Part shown: piece by piece, positions 14,948 to 23,971 of the stretch | Layout: each line of letters opens with the position of its first letter | Position numbering within the stretch: position 1 is the stretch's first letter | Position numbers and translations under genes: made by a program | Assembly: GCA_031414595.1 (NCBI GenBank) | Contig: JANNVX010000104.1 | Span: forward strand, 1-23,971 | Source: Deinococcales bacterium | GTDB lineage: Bacteria; Deinococcota; Deinococci; Deinococcales; JAAFIG01 | Direction of reading: 5' to 3' | DNA: 23,971 bases | Notes under the pieces: model-generated | Databases searched by the model: none | Told to the model about the DNA's origin: nothing | The model's input: the letters and a program-made list of their open reading frames with translations, nothing else

Positions 14948-17900
14948 TTATTGTTTATACAACCCCGCCACCAAAGCGTCTATCTCGAGCCGAAGCGCCT
15001 TAAACTGCTCGAGTTTTTGCACCACCACTTGTTCTTGGGTTTCCAGTGCATCCAATGCCGCCACCGCATCGGCGGGGGTGCTTGGTAGCTCGAGTCCACG
15101 GGCTTCAAGGCTGGCAACCGTATCCGAGCCGCAGAGCTTAAATTGTCGCTCGAGCCAAAGCAAGGCGCGTTCTGGGGTTTCGGGCGCAAACTCGAGAACA
15201 ATATCGTTGCGTCCACGAATTAAAGTCTGTCCACGCACTCGAGCATCGGATACAGTTGCACCAGAATCCAGTATTTGCATTCCCCAAAGCATTTTGGCTC
15301 GAGCCAGTGGCACTTTTTGAATACCGAGTGGCAAATGTGCGGGTGCATGACAAGTACCCTGTACGGTGCGAATCACCCAACCCAAGCGCCGTAATCCAAA
15401 GAACTCGAGTCCTAGGGAATTGAGTTTTTGTACCAGTGCAATAATCGGTTTTTGTTGCTCGAGGCTAATGTCTGGAATGGGAATGGGTTTGTAGTCGTCT
15501 GGGTAAAGATTTGTACGGTCACGACGATTGGCTTTTAGATAATCAGAAATGTAGCTTGAATTGAGAATGCCTTGTAAGAATTCTAGGCTAAAATTTACGG
15601 AACGCTGCTCGAGAATACCTCTATCCTGCTTATTCACAGAATCATTGATAGGGCGATTCTCGACACCTTTTAGGGCAATCCACGGCACAAGATGATGGAT
15701 ACTGTGATTGGTGTATAGCCAGCCTAATTCTTGATTTCCTTTGTCTAAAACAGCGTTGGCTTGGTTTGCGTCATTGCTCGAGACGACCATCGAAACCCCA
15801 ATTTTTTGGTTCTTAAACAATTCTGGAAACCTTGCACGACGAATTCTTTCTGGCGCACGCAAACCAGAGCCATACTCGAGAAAACGCATTGAAATAAGCT
15901 CAAAAGGTTGTACGTCACTGGCTTCAATATAGGCGGCGGGATGTTGATTATCTTTTTCTAGCGAAACTAAATCATCTTTTTTGAACTCGTTTGGAAATTT
16001 GATTTCATGAGACTGCAACTCCATTCCAGCACTGATAAAACATATCTCCTCGAGCCTGTGCATTCCTTTTAATTTTTCTTGGGCTTTACTCTGCCGCCAG
16101 ACTTGAATACCTATTTCGCTTTGCTTGGCGGTTTCTTCTTTGCTTAAAACACTTTCTAGGCTTTTGGCATCGGCGGCGGGTTGGGTAAACCAACGGCGTA
16201 GGGTTTTGGCTTTGGGGCTTGGAGGGGTGTTCTGGACAAAAAAGATGGTGTTTTCGACCACCGCATCTTCAAATAATTTGACCCCCGGAAAAAATGCCAG
16301 TTGCTTAATTTGGGTTTTGGCGGTTAGCAATTGGCGGATACTTTCGGTGTACGGCACAGTTTCGATAGCATTTGAGGTAATCATTCCCATTGTGCCGTTT
16401 TTGGCTAACAATTGCCAGCCAAGGGCAATAAATGGCACAAATAAATCCCATTTTTTCTGGCAAGCCTCACGCAAGGCACTGATGGGATGTTCTTCTTTAA
16501 TTTGACGGCGGTATTCTTTTAAGCCCTCACCACCTTCGTCGGCTCGAACATAGGGCGGGTTTGCCACCACATAATCAAAACTGGTTTGCAGTGCCAGTTT
16601 TATTTGTTCGGCTTCGGGCATTCCGCGTAAATCGAGGGCTTCGGCTGTAGGGTTTATCTGCTCGAGTTGGGCGATTTGGGCGGCGTTAGCTTCTGGCTTT
16701 AAGGTGTCGGTGTTAAAAATCTTAAAACGCTCGAGATGAATTTCTTGCCCTGCGTCCAAAGCGGTTTTTATTGGGTCTAGTACCTGAATTAACAAATTGG
16801 TTTCGGCTAAATAACAAGCAAATGGGTTTAAGTCTAAACCGTAGACACCTTGCTGCACCGTCTCGAGTACCAAATTGACTTCTTGGGCTGGAATCTTGCC
16901 CTTGTGGTGTTTTTTGAATGCCCCAACAATGCGGTTGGCGGCTTTGACCAAAAATGTTCCACTGCCACAAGCGGGGTCTATAATCCGTTTGCCTTGGACG
17001 GCATCTAAGCCTTGGTAGCCAACTTGGTCTAGGATATAATCCACAATCACTGGTGGGGTGTAATACATGCCGCTTTCGTGCTTGTGTTTATCTTCGACAT
17101 AGCGGCTGTACAAATGCCCAATCACATCTTGGTCTATCTGCGCTAAATCGAACTGGGCAAAACGGTGCAGTATCCGAATCACCAAATTGCGGTCTGGGGT
17201 GTACCAGTCGTAGAGCAAGCGTTCGCTGTAAAAATGACGGTAAATATGTTGTGCGCCACTGTACGCCATCTCGAGCAGAAAATAAGTGCTTTTGCCTTGG
17301 GCATGGCGTAAATAATACGGCTCGATGGTTTCAAACCAGTGCGCCACACCGCCGTTGGTAAAAATTCTGGGGATAAGGGCTTTATCTTCTAAAATCCGTA
17401 CCAGCAGCATTCGCACCACCAGCACATAAGCAGTTTGGGCGCTAAATTCGCGTTGCAAACGGGTTGGGTCGTTGGTTTTAAGAATAATCGTGGCAACTTT
17501 TGCCACCCAAGCGCTGTAGGATTCGCGCACTTCTATCGCGTCGCGGTATTGGCGCATCAGGTCGTCGCGGTGATTGTGATAACTGCTAATCAGGTGTTGT
17601 AAACGGCTGATTTGTCGCCGCATTTCGGTGCTGATGGTTTGTTGTGGCGCAGCTTTTTTAGTCACTGGAATCTCGAGCAAGCTGCCTTGGGCTTCGGGGA
17701 TAAGGGCATCAAAAACATTTTCTTGGGTTTGGTCTGGCTTGGCTTTCTTGATTTTTTTGGCTTCTATTGGCGTAGCACTGGCTAAGGCTTGTTTGGCTTG
17801 TCGCTCGAGTTTATCAATTAAGTCGCGCTCGGTAAAACGCTCGAGTTGACCTTCCAAAAAATACTTGGTCGCCAGCCAAATATCGCTAATTCCCGCTTTG

Positions 17901-18766
17901 CTGTATTCGGAACTCAATGCCTCCATGCTCTGCAAAATCAGGTCTCGAGCATTGCTGTTTGGTTCGCTTGGCAGCCGTTCTAGGGCAGTTTGGTATTCTT
18001 CAAATTCACGTAAGCGCAGCCGCAACTGAGCGCCGACATCAAATTCGATTTCTTGAATCACAGCACGGGTTTGTTCGATTAAACGTTGCAAAAAATCGGG
18101 GTTGCTGCTCTTAAACTCTGGGTTAAACGTGCTGCCGTCGAGCGCATGAAGTACGCCAGCCTCGGTATGGGTCAGTTCATGAACCAATTTGCCAGCCCCT
18201 GCATAAGACTGCCTCGAGAAACGGTTATAAAAGGCGGCTAAGGCGCTGATGTCTTGGTCGTCTAAGCCAGCCAAGCCGCTTAAACCGTTGCTGTATAAGT
18301 TGCCCTCGGTTCGCCACCGCGCCACCAACTCGAGCAAATCTAGGTCAGCAATTAAAGCTGGTACGGGGTCACGCAGTTCGTATGCCAGCAAGCGCTTGCC
18401 ATTGCATAGTAGTCCTCGTGGCGCACCGTTTGAGCGCATATAGCCCTCGAGTTGCGCCAAGGCTTCACGCTCGAGTGCCAGAATGCCCGATTTTTTATCT
18501 TCGATGATAAAACACGGCTTTGGATAAGTGCTTAAATGCACCAGAAAATCTGGGCGGCGCTTACCAACCGCGTTATCGTAATCGTATTCGGAATCGGTGT
18601 AGCCAAGGGCTTTAATTAAAAGCTGCGAGACCCGTAAGTCGACAATGTTTTTTTCATCGCCGCCATGGTCGGTTTGACTAAAATACTGGGTAAAGGTTTG
18701 GGCATTGTAAAAATCATCTCGAGCCAAATGACCAATAAACTCAGCAATAAATGTTTCGGCGGACAT
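14948..18766 (-). CDS. Fused type IIG-like restriction-modification enzyme (PD-(D/E)xK nuclease, N6-adenine MTase, TRD)
   Basis: N-terminal RRPDF...IIEDKK...QLEGY; MTase motifs GMYYTP, IIDPACGSGTF and VVANPPY; TaqI_C-like region ending GILNS. Extended -10 TGGTAACTT 5 nt upstream of the ATG. Confidence 0.85.
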   Translation of the reverse strand: MSAETFIAEFIGHLARDDFYNAQTFTQYFSQTDHGGDEKNIVDLRVSQLLIKALGYTDSEYDYDNAVGKRRPDFLVHLSTYPKPCFIIEDKKSGILALEREALAQLEGYMRSNGAPRGLLCNGKRLLAYELRDPVPALIADLDLLELVARWRTEGNLYSNGLSGLAGLDDQDISALAAFYNRFSRQSYAGAGKLVHELTHTEAGVLHALDGSTFNPEFKSSNPDFLQRLIEQTRAVIQEIEFDVGAQLRLRLREFEEYQTALERLPSEPNSNARDLILQSMEALSSEYSKAGISDIWLATKYFLEGQLERFTERDLIDKLERQAKQALASATPIEAKKIKKAKPDQTQENVFDALIPEAQGSLLEIPVTKKAAPQQTISTEMRRQISRLQHLISSYHNHRDDLMRQYRDAIEVRESYSAWVAKVATIILKTNDPTRLQREFSAQTAYVLVVRMLLVRILEDKALIPRIFTNGGVAHWFETIEPYYLRHAQGKSTYFLLEMAYSGAQHIYRHFYSERLLYDWYTPDRNLVIRILHRFAQFDLAQIDQDVIGHLYSRYVEDKHKHESGMYYTPPVIVDYILDQVGYQGLDAVQGKRIIDPACGSGTFLVKAANRIVGAFKKHHKGKIPAQEVNLVLETVQQGVYGLDLNPFACYLAETNLLIQVLDPIKTALDAGQEIHLERFKIFNTDTLKPEANAAQIAQLEQINPTAEALDLRGMPEAEQIKLALQTSFDYVVANPPYVRADEGGEGLKEYRRQIKEEHPISALREACQKKWDLFVPFIALGWQLLAKNGTMGMITSNAIETVPYTESIRQLLTAKTQIKQLAFFPGVKLFEDAVVENTIFFVQNTPPSPKAKTLRRWFTQPAADAKSLESVLSKEETAKQSEIGIQVWRQSKAQEKLKGMHRLEEICFISAGMELQSHEIKFPNEFKKDDLVSLEKDNQHPAAYIEASDVQPFELISMRFLEYGSGLRAPERIRRARFPELFKNQKIGVSMVVSSNDANQANAVLDKGNQELGWLYTNHSIHHLVPWIALKGVENRPINDSVNKQDRGILEQRSVNFSLEFLQGILNSSYISDYLKANRRDRTNLYPDDYKPIPIPDISLEQQKPIIALVQKLNSLGLEFFGLRRLGWVIRTVQGTCHAPAHLPLGIQKVPLARAKMLWGMQILDSGATVSDARVRGQTLIRGRNDIVLEFAPETPERALLWLERQFKLCGSDTVASLEARGLELPSTPADAVAALDALETQEQVVVQKLEQFKALRLEIDALVAGLYKQ

Positions 18767-18823
18767 GGTTTAAGTTACCATGTTGTAAAGTAAAGGATAA
18801 GGACAGGACGGTCACAAGGGTCG

Positions 18824-19193
18824 CCCATAAGCATCAGGTTAAGAGCAAAAGCCTTTCAGTACGCATAGAATCACAATCAGTCAGCCCCTCACCCGACTCG
18901 CTTGAAGCTCGTCACCCTCCCCCAAAACACGCTTCGCTGGGGGAGGGTTAGTGAGTAGTGTTGACTTCTGTTAAACTTGAAAAACGTGCTAAAAACTGTG
19001 TTTTTTAGGTTTCTAGCCCTCAATTTGAACAACAAACCAAACCGAACAACCCTCTCCCGCGCTTTTTGGCGGGATGAGGGTAACGAGCCTAAGCGAGTTG
19101 GGTGAGGGTTGGAGCGCGGTATGGACAATTCATTGTATGTAATAGGTTTTTATTGTTCTGCACTATAAATTTCCTTAAACTGATGCTTATGGG
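18824..19193. mobile_element. MITE-like element carrying an internal inverted pair of CCCTCACCC-type palindromic repeats
   Basis: 20-bp inverted ends CCCATAAGCATCAGGTTAAG and CTTAAACTGATGCTTATGGG (1 mismatch). Internal inverted units at 18886-18948 and 19049-19108. No TSD resolved. Confidence 0.65.
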
Positions 19194-19199
19194 AGGGTC

Positions 19200-19238
19200 T
19201 TCTTGACCCTAAAGAAGCACCTTTCGGGCTTGGGTCGC
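19200..19238 (-). mobile_element. Mini hairpin insertion element, copy 3 (39 bp, minus strand)
   Basis: Reverse complement GCG-ACCCAA-GCCCGAAAGGTGC-TTCT-TTAGGGT-CAAGA-A, inserted in the loop of hairpin GGGAGGGT...ACCCTCCC. Confidence 0.8.
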
Positions 19239-19328
19239 TTGTACCCTCCCCGTTTCAATGTATTAGGCGAAATTTTTGCATTGAGTTTCGCAAATAACTT
19301 TAACTACAACTGACGTTAAAATAAAGCA

Positions 19329-20048
19329 GTGAAGCAACTCCATTTACAATCAGTAAACTACGAACCCCAGCCTTGGCTCGAGACGCACCCGTACAACATT
19401 CCAGCCGTGCAGCAAATACGAGACAACGGCTTAAAGTTTTCTAATCCAATCACTTTTTTTGTCGGTGAGAACGGCTCTGGTAAAACCACCGTACTCGAGA
19501 GTATTGCTGTGCGCTACAAACGCATTGGCGCAGCTACACCGTATTTGCGGCGTACAGGCACAGAACTTTCACTCGAGGATGCGCCCTTGGGTTGGAATGC
19601 GGTGCTGGGAACACCTTTAAGTGCATCACCCGAAGGATTTTTTCTTCGTGCCAGTACCTTGTCGGATTTAATCTCAGACCTTGAATCCACTCGAGCCAGA
19701 CGCTTTGAACGTGGGTACAGTTCTCGTTCGCACGGTGAGCGGTTACTGCATATCCTCAACGAACACTTTGACTCGAGCGGATTTTACTTGCTGGACGAAC
19801 CCGAAACGGCGTTATCGTTTCAATCGCAACTTGGTTTACTGGCATTACTACACAATTTGGCATCTCGTGGGGCGCAAGTGATTTGTGCCACGCACTCGCC
19901 GATATTACTTTCTTTACCGAATACCAGTATTCTCGAGTTTGGAGCTTGGGGTATTCGCCAGAGTACAGCCGACGATCTCGAGTTACTGCGTGATTGGAAA
20001 GGTTTTTTGAATGCGCCCGAGCGTTGGTTACGGAATTTACTCGAGTAG
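19329..20048 (+). CDS. Predicted ABC-fold ATPase (AAA_21/COG3910-like)
   Basis: VGENGSGKTT, SHGE signature, LLDEPETALS, CATHSP. TAAAAT 6 nt upstream of the GTG start. Confidence 0.85.
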   Translation: MKQLHLQSVNYEPQPWLETHPYNIPAVQQIRDNGLKFSNPITFFVGENGSGKTTVLESIAVRYKRIGAATPYLRRTGTELSLEDAPLGWNAVLGTPLSASPEGFFLRASTLSDLISDLESTRARRFERGYSSRSHGERLLHILNEHFDSSGFYLLDEPETALSFQSQLGLLALLHNLASRGAQVICATHSPILLSLPNTSILEFGAWGIRQSTADDLELLRDWKGFLNAPERWLRNLLE

Positions 20049-20057
20049 AATGGTTAT

Positions 20058-20249
20058 TTAATCACCAGACATTAGAGAAGTGTGATGCGAACTGACTGCA
20101 TAAATAGCTGGACGATAACGCGGTTCAGGAATTTTTAGCCCCAATTCTTCAGCAGCCTCGAGCCAAAGATTTTTAGCAATCTCGAGTTCATACAGTGCCT
20201 CGGCTGGGGATTCCCCAAATGCTGAATTTTCCACACATACCGAATACAA
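20058..20249 (-). pseudogene. hicB: 5'-truncated HicB-like antitoxin
   Basis: SAFGESPAEALYELEIAKNLWLEAAEELGLKIPEPRYRPAIY matches the C-terminal part of short HicB proteins. The usual N-terminal strands are missing and no hicA is adjacent. Confidence 0.65.
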
Positions 20250-20279
20250 CCGTTGGAGGACAACATAACAAGCATAATT

Positions 20280-20335
20280 CTCGAGCCAACAAGATTTTAG
20301 GCAGTGGCTCGAGGCAGATAAAAGCGATGGGCTTA
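20280..20335 (+). repeat. CTCGAG-bounded repeat upstream of higBA
   Basis: CTCGAGCCAACAAGATTTTAGGCAGTGGCTCGAG resembles 21340-21372; its tail resembles 22132-22165. Confidence 0.6.
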
Positions 20336-20396
20336 AGTCTGTGTAGTAGAAATGTCACACATTAAATTACTTATAGGTGATATATTTGAGGTGTGA

Positions 20397-20810
20397 ATGA
20401 ATGAGATTTGGGAAATAAGTTTTTTTGAGGATGAAAAAGGGAATGTACCTGTACGAGATTATCTCATGGCGCTCAAAACTGGTGAACAAAAACGCTTTTT
20501 AACACGCCTGATTCCACTCCAAGAAAAAGGTTTAGCCGCAGGGCGACCATACAGCGACAAACTCGAAGATAATCTGTACGAACTCAGGCTCGAGAATTCA
20601 CCACATAATCCACGTTTTCTGTATTGCACTGCGATTGGTCGGGTTTTACATTTACTGCACGGGTTTTCCAAAACAGGCAAAAACTCAGACCTTGTTCCAG
20701 AATCCGAAAAAATCATTGCCAGACGAAGACGTGACCAATTATTCAAACATCTTCAAGCACAACAAGCAGCTATAGAACAGCCACAAAAACAAGCCAAGAA
20801 AAAAAGGTGA
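20397..20810 (+). CDS. higB: Gp49/HigB-type RelE-superfamily toxin
   Basis: FFEDEKGNVPVRDYL, GRPYSDKLEDNLYELR, RFLY, LLHGFSK. Toxin-first order upstream of an HTH gene. Confidence 0.82.
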   Translation: MNEIWEISFFEDEKGNVPVRDYLMALKTGEQKRFLTRLIPLQEKGLAAGRPYSDKLEDNLYELRLENSPHNPRFLYCTAIGRVLHLLHGFSKTGKNSDLVPESEKIIARRRRDQLFKHLQAQQAAIEQPQKQAKKKR

Positions 20811-20814
20811 GAAC

Positions 20815-21333
20815 ATGAAACCAAAAAAACCATCTCCAATTGGAGCAAATACACTGAACGCGATTGAATGGTTGAATAGTATTTTGCCAGATACCCCAGA
20901 AATGCGAGCCATTGAAGAAGAAGAATGGACAAAATATAACCTCGCTATTGCTTTAATTGAGGCTCGAGAAGCGGCAGGACACACCCAAAGCACTCTGGCA
21001 GCCGAACTTGGTGTGCAACAAAGTCTGATTTCAAAATGGGAAAAAGTCCACCATAACCACACCCTCGAGACGCTGCTGCAACTTTGCAACGCCACAGGCG
21101 CAAAATTGGTCATGGGACTCGAGATAAACGACGAGCTGCACGCGATTACGCCAGCCGCCAAGCGCTGCGTTTTACTTTCAGAAACTGCTCAGCAAAAGCT
21201 CGAGGCAAAAGCTAAAAGCACGGGATTAACACCAAGGGAGACACTGCTTGCGCCATTGGTGGAGAAAGAAAAACCACCAGCCAAACACCGCGTCTCGAGC
21301 AGCCAATCAAGACTTGAAGCGCAAAGCAGATAG
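20815..21333 (+). CDS. higA: XRE/HTH antitoxin (HigA-like) with a C-terminal extension
   Basis: LIEAREAAGHTQSTLAAELGVQQSLISKWE...TLETLLQLCNATG; starts 4 nt after the toxin stop. Confidence 0.8.
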   Translation: MKPKKPSPIGANTLNAIEWLNSILPDTPEMRAIEEEEWTKYNLAIALIEAREAAGHTQSTLAAELGVQQSLISKWEKVHHNHTLETLLQLCNATGAKLVMGLEINDELHAITPAAKRCVLLSETAQQKLEAKAKSTGLTPRETLLAPLVEKEKPPAKHRVSSSQSRLEAQSR

Positions 21334-21372
21334 CCACGGCTCGAGCCTTAAGATTTCAGGCAGAGGCTCGAG
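21331..21372 (+). repeat. CTCGAG-bounded repeat downstream of higBA
   Basis: TAGCCACGGCTCGAGCCTTAAGATTTCAGGCAGAGGCTCGAG; shares AGCCACGGCTCGAG with 22126-22139. Confidence 0.6.
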
Positions 21373-21403
21373 AAAGGTGATAAACAAGTTATAATCCCAA
21401 ACA

Positions 21404-21928
21404 ATGACAATTGGAGAAGTCGAACAATGGCATCATTTTGTGTATAACGGCATAACTTATGACCTATCCCATTTGAACGCCAGCAAAGTTGTGTACACCA
21501 ATCCAAAAACCGAAACGCAATACGAATTTATAGTTACATACAGCTTTCATTGCTTTGCCAAAGACGATAATGCACTTTCGGCTGCGGAACATTCAGCACT
21601 CCTGTACATTGCACCTCGAGACTCGCGCCCATTTCATTTTGAGCGTTACGAAGACTCAAAACAGCTTCCTGAAATTATTAGGAAGCTGCACCAAGCCTAT
21701 ATTTTCGATGCTGGTTATGATGGTTGTGCAACAGTTCAGATTCTTAACGAAGCAGGTATTTTGGTGCATTACAAAATAATTTTTAAGGCATTTCGAGAGA
21801 AGAAAAAGTTTCGCCTTCACATCTCGAGCGCTCATCGGCTTACCGTGGTTGGCAAGACCAAGCGAATCAACTTTTTTACCATTGCCGAGAGTTTAGTCAA
21901 AAACAAACCATTGCCACGAAACCCATAA
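21404..21928 (+). CDS. Uncharacterised 174-aa protein, resembling the 'heat shock protein C / stationary phase growth adaptation protein' family
   Basis: Motifs YDLSHL, VTYSFHCFA, RPFHFERYEDSKQLP, LHISSAH, recognised from memory only. TATAAT at 21390-21395, 8 nt before the ATG. Confidence 0.7.
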   Translation: MTIGEVEQWHHFVYNGITYDLSHLNASKVVYTNPKTETQYEFIVTYSFHCFAKDDNALSAAEHSALLYIAPRDSRPFHFERYEDSKQLPEIIRKLHQAYIFDAGYDGCATVQILNEAGILVHYKIIFKAFREKKKFRLHISSAHRLTVVGKTKRINFFTIAESLVKNKPLPRNP

Positions 21929-22063
21929 ATAACAAAGGCTCTCTGAAGAGAGCCTTCGCCAAGGGGTTGCCTTGGTATTCGGAAAGTGTCTTTACCGGAC
22001 AAGCCTCGACCTTTGCAGGTAACGTGATGTCATGTACTTGTGGCACATGTCCGCCGCATCAAC
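21929..22063 (-). ncRNA. Candidate ~135-nt structured RNA convergent on the 21404 gene
   Basis: Own promoter, five consecutive hairpins, a terminator with a U-rich tail on the minus strand, and no plausible ORF. Confidence 0.6.
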
Positions 22064-22069
22064 AAGAAA

Positions 22070-22098
22070 AGAGTAGCGAAATTAAAAGTTTTTGTCAA
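22070..22098 (-). promoter_or_regulatory. sigma70 promoter for the candidate ncRNA
   Basis: TTGACA (22098-22093), 17 bp, TACTCT (22075-22070). Confidence 0.65.
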
Positions 22099-22119
22099 GT
22101 TTTTTGTGCCTCGCGCCGA

Positions 22120-22170
22120 GCAAACAGCCACGGCTCGAGGCACAAAATAAAGCAATGGCTCGAGGCACAC
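22120..22170 (-). repeat. Inverted relative of the 515/1246/1832 repeat, with tandem GGCTCGAGGCAC units
   Basis: GCAAACAGCCACGGCT is the reverse complement of AGCCGTGGCTGTTTGC in copy C. Confidence 0.6.
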
Positions 22171-22207
22171 CGCAGCCTTTAGGAATGCAACCAAAATGCG
22201 GGAATGG

Positions 22208-22359
22208 CAGGACAGACACGGGCGACCATGCCCGCAGGTGCGTGTTTAGCGACCCAAGCCCGCAGGTGCTGCTGTAGGGGTCAAGATTGGTCAAGAAGGG
22301 TCTGTCCCTCCAGGGTATGGAAATACGTCAGGTAGGGCGCGACCCTTGTGGTCGCCCTG
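22208..22359. repeat. Inverted REP doublet whose left REP carries two nested mini elements
   Basis: Left REP CAGGACAGACACGG[insert]GGGTCTGTCCCTCC; right REP GTAGGGCGCGACCCTTGTGGTCGCCCTG (22332-22359). Confidence 0.75.
22222..22297 (+). mobile_element. Mini hairpin insertion element, copies 4 and 5 (22249-22287 nested inside 22222-22297)
   Basis: Outer GCGACCATGCCCGCAGGTGCGTGTTTA|TGGTCAAGAA; inner GCGACCCAAGCCCGCAGGTGCTGCTGTAGGGGTCAAGAT. Confidence 0.8.
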
Positions 22360-22444: not shown

Positions 22445-23860
22445 TTAACGTAAAGTTATTCCATTTGTATTTATAGATGTTAAATCAGCACTGGGATGAA
22501 TAAATAATGCTTGATTACCAAATACACCAATATTTTGTGCAATATTGCCATCAAATTGGATATGGTCACTATCATGTACTGCGACAGCACTAGAGGGTGC
22601 AAATCCAAATACGCCACCTGAAAATAAAGGCGAAACATTGTTGGTTCGATAGAAACGATTATTAACGACACGGGCTCCACTGACATTAGAGATGAAGAGA
22701 CCCAAAATAGGTGCTGTTTCGATTGAATTATTTTCAATAACGATATTTTTATTGGGTCTACTTCCTAAGAATTGATTTCTTTGGTCTGCACGACTTCCTG
22801 AAATTACGGTAATAGCTCCTAATAACCACTGTCCCCAATCTCGAGAACGATTTCCAATCATAACATCGCGTAATGTATTGCCACGAATTATAATATTTTC
22901 GGCAATGTCACCTTCATAAAAATATCCTGCTTCTGGTCCAACCCAAATACCACCTTGGGTCGTGCGTTCAACAACATTATTTTCGATGCGTTGACGCGCA
23001 CTTCTCATAACAATACCACGTGCTTCAAGATCACGAAATACACAATTCTTAACAACTGCATCGGCACCTGCATGATCTGGCGAAAGCATATAATCACCAA
23101 TACGAATGCCATTTGTTGAACTAAGTGTTACCTTACCCGACTCGACTGATACGACTGTTGTCTCAAGTCTTAGACGCATAGTTGGGTCATAAACGCGAAA
23201 TCGATCATTTGCACGCCAACGCTGCTCTGGAAAAGCGGCATGGTCGCTCTGAATTGTTAAAGTTGTACCTTGTATATTTTCAATTCTGGAAAGCTCCGTA
23301 CCAATATTAATTGCATCATCTCCCGAAAATTCGGTTAAACAATCACTCACTGTTGGACCTACAGAAGTCGAAGTGCTATGTAAACCATCTGCATTTATTG
23401 ATAGCAAGCGTGGAGTATTTGCACCAGAGGGTACTTTACCCCGAGTGATTTGATAATTCAGATATGAATTACCTCCACCTGCTTCATAAATACCAGCCCC
23501 AGGGCTAGAAAACAGGGTAATATTTTCTAATCGAGTTCCAAATGAATTTTCAAGTAAAACAGCTACGCCACGATCTAGCCATTCCGAAATAACTATTCGA
23601 TCACCAACCTCAAATTTTTCAAGTCTTCCATCTAAAGCGTTATACTTAACTCGAGCCAGTCTATTAGTAATCTGGATGTTTTCTGGTGTGGTAAAGACAT
23701 CTACTCCAAAACGTTTAAAATATCCAAATCGGTCAAAAGTATGTATTCTTGGGTTTTTTTCAATAAAATACGATTTATCTGTTGGATAACCAGTATCAAT
23801 TTGCATTTCAAATCCAGTATTATCTGACTCAACTTGGAAAGAGTACACTTTCGTGGACAT
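22445..23860 (-). pseudogene. Right-handed parallel beta-helix protein (GH110-like carbohydrate-active enzyme), 5'-truncated by an IS
   Basis: Repeated I(I/V)xNNx(I/F) turns plus LLSINADGLHS and GDDAINIG motifs. The ORF-track N-terminus (23861-23944) is antisense IS3 sequence. Confidence 0.65.
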
Positions 23861-23971
23861 GAAGGTCGGTTTCAAAATGAAATCGGAGACTATGATGTCA
23901 AAGCAAATGAAAACATATACCCTAGAATTTAAGCAACAAGCCATAAAGCTCGCCCAGCAAGAGGGAATGAG
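23860..23971 (+). mobile_element. Left end of an IS3-family element with the start of transposase OrfA (partial)
   Basis: A TG-starting end at 23860, GGAG SD, then MMSKQMKTYTLEFKQQAIKLAQQEGM from 23892, matching the YxxEFKxxA(V/I)xL HTH_Tnp_1 start. Runs off the window. Confidence 0.8.

Follow-up and report, generated by a model that had tools for sequence, protein, structure and literature searches.

The window analysed here, a stretch of 23,971 nucleotides from a member of the Deinococcota, contains on its plus strand a gene for a protein of 174 amino acids (21404..21928) and, converging on its stop codon, a minus-strand gene for a structured RNA of approximately 135-139 nucleotides (21925..22063). 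As judged from protein homology and covariance models, this locus is a diverged copy of the yjaZ-sroH pair of Escherichia coli, a self-contained two-gene module which is sometimes found on mobile elements. The comparison of 78 homologous loci shows that, in the genomes compared, the YjaZ-family protein and a pseudoknotted RNA with its own predicted promoter are obligate genomic partners, which are inherited and have spread horizontally as a unit. We see about an even chance that the pair forms an autonomous protein-RNA module resembling toxin-antitoxin (TA) systems, in which YjaZ would be harmful and the RNA would act as its antidote. Two E. coli orphans, SroH and the 'y-ome' protein YjaZ, thereby gain a concrete hypothesis that is testable in E. 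coli K-12. Both families were already known by name only, and the window copy is a new distant member; as far as can be told, there is no publication of their partnership, of its occurrence across phyla, of a pseudoknotted model with eight helices or of two further RNA subtypes.

Identity and layout of the locus

The window protein, which appears to consist of a single domain of the YjaZ family (PF27200), shares 40% identity with YjaZ of E. coli K-12 over 173/174 residues (BLASTP, E 9e-40). It matches the NCBIfam model NF007263 ('stationary phase growth adaptation protein YjaZ') with 121 bits (E 5.6e-35), which falls short of the equivalog cutoff of 324 bits; by these sequence comparisons it is a member of the YjaZ family and no equivalog of the enterobacterial protein. 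PF27200 is precomputed on 16/16 database homologues of the window protein, and the nearest clusters of the protein atlas are likewise PF27200; in the local copy of Pfam, the protein matched no family, PF27200 included.

The RNA was identified by a search of Rfam, as had been suggested in a first-pass annotation of the window. A scan with an E-value threshold returned RF00372 (sroH) at 21934-22093 of the minus strand over the full model (40 bits, E 1e-7) and no other family. The score is half of the gathering score of 80 bits, and a scan of the window at the gathering threshold gave no match; the E. coli, Erwinia and Microcoleus loci score 201, 92 and 80 bits, respectively. In E. coli K-12, yjaZ (b3989, formerly htrC) ends at 4190325 and sroH (b4691) occupies 4190327-4190487 on the opposite strand, the two genes being convergent and abutting as in the window. 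A pairwise alignment of the window RNA with E. coli SroH reveals compensatory changes in hairpin P5 and in the terminator (described below), and both RNAs are accommodated in one alignment of 30 sequences in which 98.4% of the cells are paired. Our covariance model R1, the training set of which includes the window RNA, matches the window at 21920-22067 with 117.1 bits. A second model, R2, which was trained on neither of the two RNAs, recognises E. coli SroH with 28.3 bits (E 1e-6) and gives no match to the window RNA at E <= 0.01. Since a blastn search (distant mode) of the window locus against E. coli genomes found no match, the homology to E. coli is visible only at the level of proteins and covariance models. 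The two loci differ in that the window promoter adjoins the first helix of the RNA, P1, while the E. coli RNA, as annotated, is longer by ~30 nucleotides at its 5' end, and in that the window host belongs to another phylum. The first-pass annotation had described an uncharacterised protein paired with a structured RNA; the pairing is borne out by the comparative data, but the pair is recognisable as yjaZ-sroH of E. coli.

The promoter of the RNA gene (22070..22098, minus strand) had been correctly described as TTGACA-17-TACTCT and consists of a perfect -35 box (22098-22093), a 17-nucleotide spacer and the -10 box TACTCT (22075-22070), from which a start of the RNA near 22063 is predicted. Because this -10 box agrees with TATAAT at 3/6 positions, the site was not listed by a consensus promoter scan; many homologous loci carry TTGACA together with TATACT, TATATT or TACTAT at an equal distance from helix P1. 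The RNA gene ends in an intrinsic terminator of the form CGAAGGCUCUC-UUCA-GAGAGCCUUUG (21925..21958, minus strand), in which 21958-21948 pairs with 21943-21933. Its U-rich tail (21932-21925) runs into the TAA stop codon of the yjaZ homologue (21926-21928), in agreement with the earlier description of a terminator abutting the stop of the gene, and the stop codon is overlapped by the RNA 3' end in E. coli and most other loci as well. Read on the yjaZ strand, the hairpin shared by both genes precedes UUCGCC instead of a U-tract. The yjaZ homologue is preceded by a promoter-like site, TCGAGA-16-TATAAT (21368..21395, plus strand; 10/12 matches in the consensus scan), with 8 nucleotides separating the end of the -10 box from the ATG, and we infer that the mRNA is leaderless or nearly so. 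Mechanically called open reading frames (ORFs) of 49-71 amino acids do overlap the RNA gene; the earlier claim that it holds no meaningful ORF is nevertheless favoured by the covariation and the loop-length variation among homologues, which argue for an RNA rather than for coding ORFs. A search of the region for tRNA and tmRNA genes found none.

A weak hint of expression in the window is provided by a single metatranscriptome contig of 152 nucleotides, which is 96% identical and covers 21946-22097. As 34 of its nucleotides lie ahead of the predicted start, it does not confirm the promoter and may stem from DNA carry-over, and such contigs show neither strand nor transcript ends. The run from which it comes, X13, contained no contig over the coding sequence (21404-21928), which is uninformative with contigs.

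SroH was reportedly first described by Vogel et al. in 2003. According to the later literature, its function is 'still unknown' (PMC5389530), full-length and processed forms, polyadenylation of the primary transcript and binding to polynucleotide phosphorylase have been reported (PMC5389530, PMC13572404), and an sroH deletion is sensitive to envelope stress (PMC5389530, PMC13572404). A study of transcription start sites places the Klebsiella orthologue among 34 expressed small RNAs, of which sroH is the least conserved. YjaZ is counted among the uncharacterised genes in another report, which also states that its first designation, htrC, was retracted (PMC11551758). In the full text of 8.1 million PubMed Central papers and 0.36 million preprints, a set from which subscription-only papers are absent, sroH never occurs together with yjaZ or htrC, and it occurs with toxin-antitoxin terms only in the polyadenylation study.

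Architecture of the RNA and its linkage to yjaZ

The RNAs of the homologous loci fall into three groups, A (including the window RNA and E. coli SroH), B and C. When folded alone, the window RNA (140 nucleotides) reaches a minimum free energy of -46.1 kcal/mol (z -2.84), and 1/200 shuffled sequences folded as well; comparative covariation is the stronger evidence for an RNA. The alignment of homologues proposed by the first-pass annotation indeed yielded strong covariation: in the 30 aligned group-A sequences, 23/41 pairs are compensatory, and among the 20 of group B, 98.3% of the cells are paired and 24/39 pairs are compensatory, with 0/500 shuffles as good in either group. Controls with slid partners were 35-49% paired in group A and 33-45% in group B. 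The architecture was derived separately in the two groups from RNAalifold and explicit pair counting, and both groups share the same eight helices, including a pseudoknot. The Rfam model RF00372 annotates only the terminator hairpin as structure. The present analysis supplies a model of the complete fold and widens the family, which now comprises three RNA subtypes.

In the window, with all positions referring to the minus strand, helix P1 (22025..22061; UGAUG 22061-22057 with CAUCA 22029-22025; 3/5 pairs compensatory in 30 sequences) surrounds P2 (CAUGUGC 22049-22043, loop CACAA, GUACAUG 22037-22031; 4/5 pairs compensatory), the two being separated by a conserved asymmetric internal loop. The following junction helix Px (21987..22024; CGUU 22024-22021 with GACA 21990-21987), which generally pairs CGUU with GACG, encloses P3 (ACCU-GCAA-AGGU, 22020-22009), P4 (GG 22005-22004 with CC 21998-21997) and a conserved GGUAA(A/C)AG stretch. 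Px first emerged from the RNAalifold prediction for group B and shows compensatory changes in 3/4 pairs in both groups; 3/4 of its pairs form in the window, which has one mismatch. P4 is extended to 4 base pairs in group B, two of which covary. Then follow the P5 hairpin (CCAAGG-CAACC-CCUUGG, 21959..21975; 5/7 pairs compensatory) and the terminator, with 6/10 pairs compensatory in the 30 group-A sequences. Conserved unpaired stretches join the helices. The ~135 nucleotides of stacked hairpins that had been noticed after the stop codon are thus present, including UGAUG/CAUCA around CAUGUGC-CACAA-GUACAUG, ACCU-GCAA-AGGU and CCAAGG/CCUUGG. A tandem-repeat search of 21900-22100 found none, the RNA being a single multi-helix unit.

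The pseudoknot (21980..22053) is formed by four bases of the P1/P2 internal loop (CGGA 22053-22050) and a complementary sequence just 3' of Px (UCCG 21983-21980), the general form being CAGA with UCUG. It is paired in 30/30 sequences of group A and 20/20 of group B, where one compensatory change is found; the window RNA has a compensatory G-C pair (CGGA/UCCG) at a position where the remaining group-A RNAs have A-U, and at the fourth pair, group B has G-C instead of the A-U of group A. A hairpin CGG(U)AAAG/CUUUCCG proposed earlier for the same region can form in the window, but the homologues support the pseudoknot and Px on those bases, and it may represent an alternative conformer of the window sequence alone. 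RNAalifold similarly suggested a local hairpin CGG../..CUG for group A, which was dropped because its bases are used by the pseudoknot, P4 and Px, which covary and are retained in those group-B variants that are unable to form the local hairpin.

The 78 loci were collected via homology of the YjaZ protein, with phyla assigned by contig titles. They span Deinococcota, many Cyanobacteria and Gammaproteobacteria, the latter including E. coli, Shigella, Erwinia, Aeromonas, Psychrobacter, Vibrio, Pseudomonas, Pantoea, Pasteurellaceae and others; the protein of one deinococcal locus (L002) is 94% identical to that of the window. The first-pass annotation had named the lack of a conserved downstream structure in homologues as an observation that would speak against it; a structured RNA lies beside yjaZ in 76/76 evaluable loci, with the remaining two (L042 and L078) cut off by a contig edge. 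The RNA converges on the yjaZ stop in 74/76 of them. In L037 it is located ~140 nucleotides beyond the stop, and in a metagenome-assembled genome of Thiomargarita (L043:2645-3531), a group-A RNA with an insertion of ~100 nucleotides in the P2 loop lies upstream of yjaZ on the same strand, in an order resembling that of type III TA systems, with no RNA downstream of the gene. The comparative data thus strongly support the earlier claim of a dedicated, independently promoted and convergent structured RNA beside the protein gene.

Group A comprises the RNAs of the window and 51 loci, which score at least 84 bits with model R1 (built from 30 group-A RNAs). Group B contains those of 24 loci, with at least 83 bits in model R2 (built from 20 group-B RNAs and run on 53 sources), and group C was assigned by alignment to one locus, L068. 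R1 and R2 each give weak but full-length matches to RNAs of the other group (23-30 bits and 25-44 bits; lowest E 2e-11), indicating that groups A and B are homologous; the Rfam gathering scores were reached by none of the eight group-B loci and the one group-C locus (L068) scanned. In the assembly of the window genome (4.49 Mb), one R1 match and three YjaZ-family genes are found. The two paralogues (C14:105403-105912 and C49:22141-22683) are each accompanied by a convergent group-C RNA, as are their homologues in a sister genus. These RNAs have a TATACT -10 box at a distance of ~135-150 nucleotides from the stop, where their terminator is located, and P1 and two further hairpins covary among nine group-C sequences; models R1 and R2 detected neither of the RNAs of the two paralogues.

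In a quick maximum-likelihood tree of 65 proteins, from which broken genes were omitted along with near-duplicates (mainly from Microcoleus and E. coli relatives), each of the RNA types A, B and C is set apart by a single branch (support 84, 100 and 98). The distribution of the types requires two changes, which is the minimum, and every clade mixes phyla. Because relatives share labels, the tree shows co-inheritance, not proven co-evolution. The 99 flanking ORFs of 18 loci contain no shared family and include housekeeping genes (signal peptidase, superoxide dismutase, nucleoside diphosphate kinase, glycyl-tRNA synthetase, SMC) as well as genes of mobile elements or TA systems (HicB, BrnA, BrnT, a resolvase and plasmid replicase, an IS110 transposase, prophage regulators and a phage baseplate gene).

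Weak R1 matches of 16-24 bits were also observed upstream of E. coli-type yjaZ genes, among them a full-length match on the yjaZ strand in the rpoC-yjaZ interval of an E. coli locus (L049:2707-2837; 24 bits, E 1.5e-4) and others in L048, L050 and L076. Because the terminator part of R1 alone gives ~17 bits, we read them as the rpoC terminator; alternatively, they may represent a decayed second copy of the RNA.

The YjaZ family forms 1,225 clusters at 50% identity (E <= 0.001), 651 of which are retained at E <= 1e-10, and nearly all of the best 150 listed clusters represent proteins of ~150-195 amino acids. Its distribution is patchy, with members in 19/301 sampled genomes of the window's phylum and in 5/151 sampled cyanobacteria. 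Among complete E. coli genomes, 3,741/5,426 (69%) carry the module, and in 3,722/3,741 of them the match spans 80% or more of the combined gene and RNA. This carriage agrees with a loss of sroH from several E. coli lineages, as reported in PMC3318445. A tblastn search found YjaZ in 569/72,556 plasmid records, 292 of them typed as conjugative. The RNA was checked on two of these records, a 7,582-bp ColRNAI colicin plasmid of Klebsiella and a 21-kb plasmid of Thiothrix, on which yjaZ adjoins parA; both carry the convergent RNA, with 119.7 and 112.1 bits. A 3.2-kb Vibrio contig contains a PAGEV RNA (L040:108-324; RF03037, 124.8 bits) ~1 kb from the yjaZ module; we take this RNA family to be plasmid-associated, and the contig may accordingly be a small plasmid.

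The protein gene is broken or truncated in 8/78 loci: L025, L029 and L042 carry nonsense codons, L002, L076 (Shigella) and L077 are frameshifted, L052 has an insertion and L079 is truncated. In all seven of these loci that include the downstream DNA, the RNA is retained at full score. Of six cyanobacterial genomes with the RNA, two contain an intact and adjacent yjaZ, one a split gene and three no YjaZ match. Two such orphan RNAs were read, one of which has kept its promoter and fold, while the other is altered at otherwise invariant positions. An intact yjaZ without the RNA was not found among the loci, which were collected via the protein and are small in number for this comparison.

Possible functions of the pair

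A structural model of YjaZ was obtained with AlphaFold2 from an alignment of 35 rows (predicted local distance difference test 91.3, predicted template modelling score 0.86). It shows a long antiparallel sheet and three short helices, extended by beta structure at the N-terminus and by a helix at the C-terminus. The structure prediction and fold search that had been suggested earlier thus resulted in a confident model, but the fold matches are weak. A Foldseek-independent structure search placed BrnT first (Z 5.1, root-mean-square deviation 2.9, 74/77 residues), followed by the toxins RelE, YoeB, HigB2, MqsR, YafQ, ParE and CdiA-CT (Z 3.2-4.6, model residues ~40-150), and a second search agrees. 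The best Foldseek hit in the PDB is HigB2 (E 0.043), the top rows in BFVD are phage polyvalent-protein domains (E ~0.009), and a sequence-profile search of the PDB with the YjaZ homologue gave no match. Because such Z values are in a common range, the fold assignment is only a lead, the weight of which comes from the consistency of the toxin list; the predicted fold may be called BrnT/RelE-like on weak but consistent grounds. The polar residues T45, H49, C50, K53, Y68, R81, Y82, E132, R137 and H139 show little or no variation in the family; of these, H49 and R81 are invariant and K53, Y82, E132, R137 and H139 nearly so. Of the two motifs highlighted previously, SFHCF contains an H-C-F that is invariant in the family, whereas the H of SAH is not conserved. 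The conserved His, Glu, Arg and Tyr residues presumably resemble the catalytic sets of metal-independent RNases. The first-pass annotation had suggested that the protein may be a toxin of the RNase type which the RNA keeps in check. We regard this view as plausible; indirect support comes from the BrnT/RelE-like fold, the conserved His, Glu and Arg residues, the carriage on plasmids and the occurrence of yjaZ pseudogenes and orphan RNAs alongside no RNA-less intact yjaZ.

The pair shares features with several known systems and differs from each of them. In type III TA systems (ToxIN, CptIN, TenpIN), an RNA antitoxin made of tandem repeats is encoded upstream in the toxin operon, on the same strand and set off from the toxin gene by a terminator, and neutralises an endoribonuclease. 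The pair resembles these in that a protein gene is accompanied by a structured RNA of its own, in lacking a protein antitoxin, in its plasmid carriage and in the neutralising logic proposed here. Unlike them, the window RNA is one non-repetitive pseudoknotted unit of ~135 nucleotides and is convergent with its own promoter rather than encoded upstream in the same operon (L043 excepted), and the best matches of the YjaZ model are BrnT/RelE-like, with no ToxN-type chain among the matches listed. Type II toxins of the RelE/ParE type (BrnT, RelE, YoeB, HigB2, MqsR) provide the best, weak structural matches over residues 40-150; YjaZ differs from them in having no sequence similarity, about twice the size, the N-terminal beta extension and C-terminal helix, and no conserved adjacent protein antitoxin among the 99 ORFs of 18 loci. 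Type I TA systems with 3'-overlapping antisense RNAs (txpA/RatA, bsrG/SR4), in which the toxin is a small membrane peptide, share with the pair the convergent orientation of the RNA and the overlap between the 3' ends of RNA and protein gene, whereas YjaZ is a soluble-looking alpha/beta protein of 174 amino acids and its RNA is conserved well outside the overlap. The abiF and DUF3800 RNA motifs are similar in that a structured RNA is tied to one protein family, but the only Rfam match of the window RNA is sroH.

In a mechanism consistent with these features, the RNA would be made from its own strong promoter and would act on the YjaZ protein, most likely through binding, YjaZ being a BrnT/RelE-like endoribonuclease that would be harmful or costly when unchecked. 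The RNA would thus be the antidote in a type III-like logic that could be useful for plasmid maintenance or defence, and yjaZ transcripts that read through the shared terminator may additionally be subject to antisense control. The conserved unpaired stretches of the RNA and the subtype-specific pairing of RNAs and protein clades fit direct binding; plasmid carriage, paralogues, patchiness and the decay of the gene with a kept or orphan RNA agree with a protein that is harmful and an RNA that serves as its antidote. Taken to its full extent, this leads to a tentative proposal, for which the chances fall short of even: the pair would represent a new class of type III-like RNA-antitoxin or defence modules, in which an endoribonuclease of BrnT/RelE fold is neutralised by one non-repetitive pseudoknotted convergent RNA of ~135 nucleotides with a promoter of its own, with at least three co-diverging subtypes spread horizontally through Deinococcota, Cyanobacteria, Gammaproteobacteria and hundreds of plasmids, one copy residing unrecognised in E. 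coli K-12. If a toxin and its antidote are indeed involved, RNA-antitoxin systems would gain a toxin fold and an RNA architecture that are both new to them, and the presence of the module on small plasmids would be explained.

A number of observations weigh against a toxin-antidote pair. Toxicity, RNase activity and RNA binding of YjaZ are each something we infer from sequences and the model; the fold matches do not exceed a Z of 5.1, which is inside the stated noise range of the tool, and Foldseek gave no hit at E <= 0.001 in either PDB or BFVD. The YjaZ homologue matched 0 families of PADLOC-DB v2.0.0 at E <= 0.01 and no model of PHROGs, and a tblastn search recovered YjaZ from 0/50,697 phage records. 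The RNA is present as a single copy, unlike the tandem repeats of known type III antitoxins, and is convergent rather than upstream, again with the exception of L043. Many yjaZ-RNA copies are located amid housekeeping genes. One cyanobacterial genome (G396) contains a distant YjaZ match and no match to R1, the only model applied there, and the counts of orphan RNAs (3/6) are small; pseudogenes and orphan RNAs also fit neutral decay, the RNA being the smaller mutational target. Finally, the sroH deletion of E. coli is viable according to PMC5389530, which is not what a potent toxin-antitoxin pair would predict.

Some of these points would be accounted for by a non-toxic ribonucleoprotein, a complex of YjaZ and RNA with a physiological job in stress or stationary phase, RNA processing or sensing, in which the RNA serves as scaffold, cofactor or substrate. 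The strict linkage, the co-divergence and the complex fold with long conserved unpaired stretches are as expected of a protein-bound RNA, and the many chromosomal copies amid housekeeping genes, the viable E. coli deletion with only an envelope-stress phenotype (PMC5389530) and the NCBI family name 'stationary phase growth adaptation protein' point in the same direction. We nevertheless consider such a complex rather unlikely, in view of the patchiness, loss and pseudogenes (19/301 genomes, 69% of E. coli, 8/78 broken), the several paralogous modules in one genome, the carriage on a 7.6-kb plasmid, and the occurrence of orphan RNAs yet no RNA-less intact gene, which is more typical of selfish or defence modules.

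The RNA may also act without any protein binding, by a purely cis-antisense control of yjaZ through convergent transcription and the shared terminator, with RNase III cleaving the duplexes formed by read-through or with transcriptional interference. The overlap of the RNA 3' end with the stop or 3' end of yjaZ in most loci would be in line with such control, and the UUCGCC in place of a U-tract on the yjaZ strand makes read-through into the RNA antisense plausible. It would, however, need mere complementarity and leaves the cross-phylum conservation outside the overlap and the pseudoknot unexplained; the RNA lies upstream on the same strand in L043 and ~140 nucleotides past the stop in L037, and orphan RNAs persist without the gene, all of which makes this explanation improbable. 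Least credible, and in our estimation very far from likely, is an ordinary trans-acting small RNA that adjoins yjaZ by chance. In a high-throughput accessibility study, E. coli SroH was reported to bind one mRNA, kbl, in gel shifts (PMC6172242), and SroH was enriched in Hfq photoactivatable ribonucleoside-enhanced crosslinking and immunoprecipitation in another study, the authors of which do not regard it as an established Hfq target (bioRxiv 10.1101/2020.06.29.178624). A chance neighbour would be at odds with the 76/76 loci from three phyla which keep the pair while other neighbours differ, with RNA types that co-diverge with protein clades, and with the co-presence in E. coli, where 3,722/3,741 matches cover both partners. 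Trans pairing of the RNA with the 5' region of its own yjaZ gained no support in 20 loci, the mean energies being -33.0 kcal/mol for cognate and -31.0 kcal/mol for non-cognate combinations (standard deviation ~8.6 kcal/mol), with scattered ranks.

Surroundings in the window

The region preceding the yjaZ homologue (14948-21333) resembles a defence island. It encodes a PglX- or type IIG methyltransferase-like protein of 1,272 amino acids (14948-18766, minus strand), an AAA_21 ATPase similar to AbiEii, GajA and AriA (19329-20048, plus strand), a Gp49/HigB-like protein (20397-20810) and a helix-turn-helix protein (20815-21333); a beta-helix gene follows at 22445-23944. The first-pass annotation had noted that the locus follows higBA: a Gp49/helix-turn-helix pair does lie upstream, but it is a separate HigBA-like module, and its link to the yjaZ homologue is incidental. 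The AAA_21 ATPase gene is located 1.4 kb upstream of the window yjaZ, and an intact module of Microcoleus (L005:3895-5733) is also flanked by an AAA_21 ATPase; in one cyanobacterium, an orphan SroH-like RNA (L097:1460-1650) is followed by a same-strand gene for a P-loop ATPase of 465 amino acids. Such ATPases may be recurrent neighbours of the module.

The palindrome CTCGAG occurs 137 times in the 23,971 bases, compared with 3.3 expected, and looks like a genome-wide over-represented palindrome, which we would liken to HIP1 of cyanobacteria. With this frequency, the earlier remark that the unit is bounded by CTCGAG repeats loses its meaning. The palindrome is often present as GGCTCGAG, is missing between 21828 and 22134, i.e. 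in the RNA gene, and is sparse after 22400.

Just upstream of the -35 box of the RNA, a 17-nucleotide inverted repeat (22102-22118 with 22131-22147) is 94% complementary. As no U-tract follows the 22102-22147 hairpin on either strand, it is not an obvious terminator. A 19-nucleotide direct repeat (22126-22144 and 22151-22169) overlaps it, and both repeats of 22102-22169 are built around GGCTCGAGGCACA. The GC-rich spacer between the RNA promoter and the beta-helix gene (22200-22340) contains a further direct repeat of 16 nucleotides (22226-22241 and 22254-22269) and, at 22278-22302, 2.5 copies of GGGTCAAGAA.

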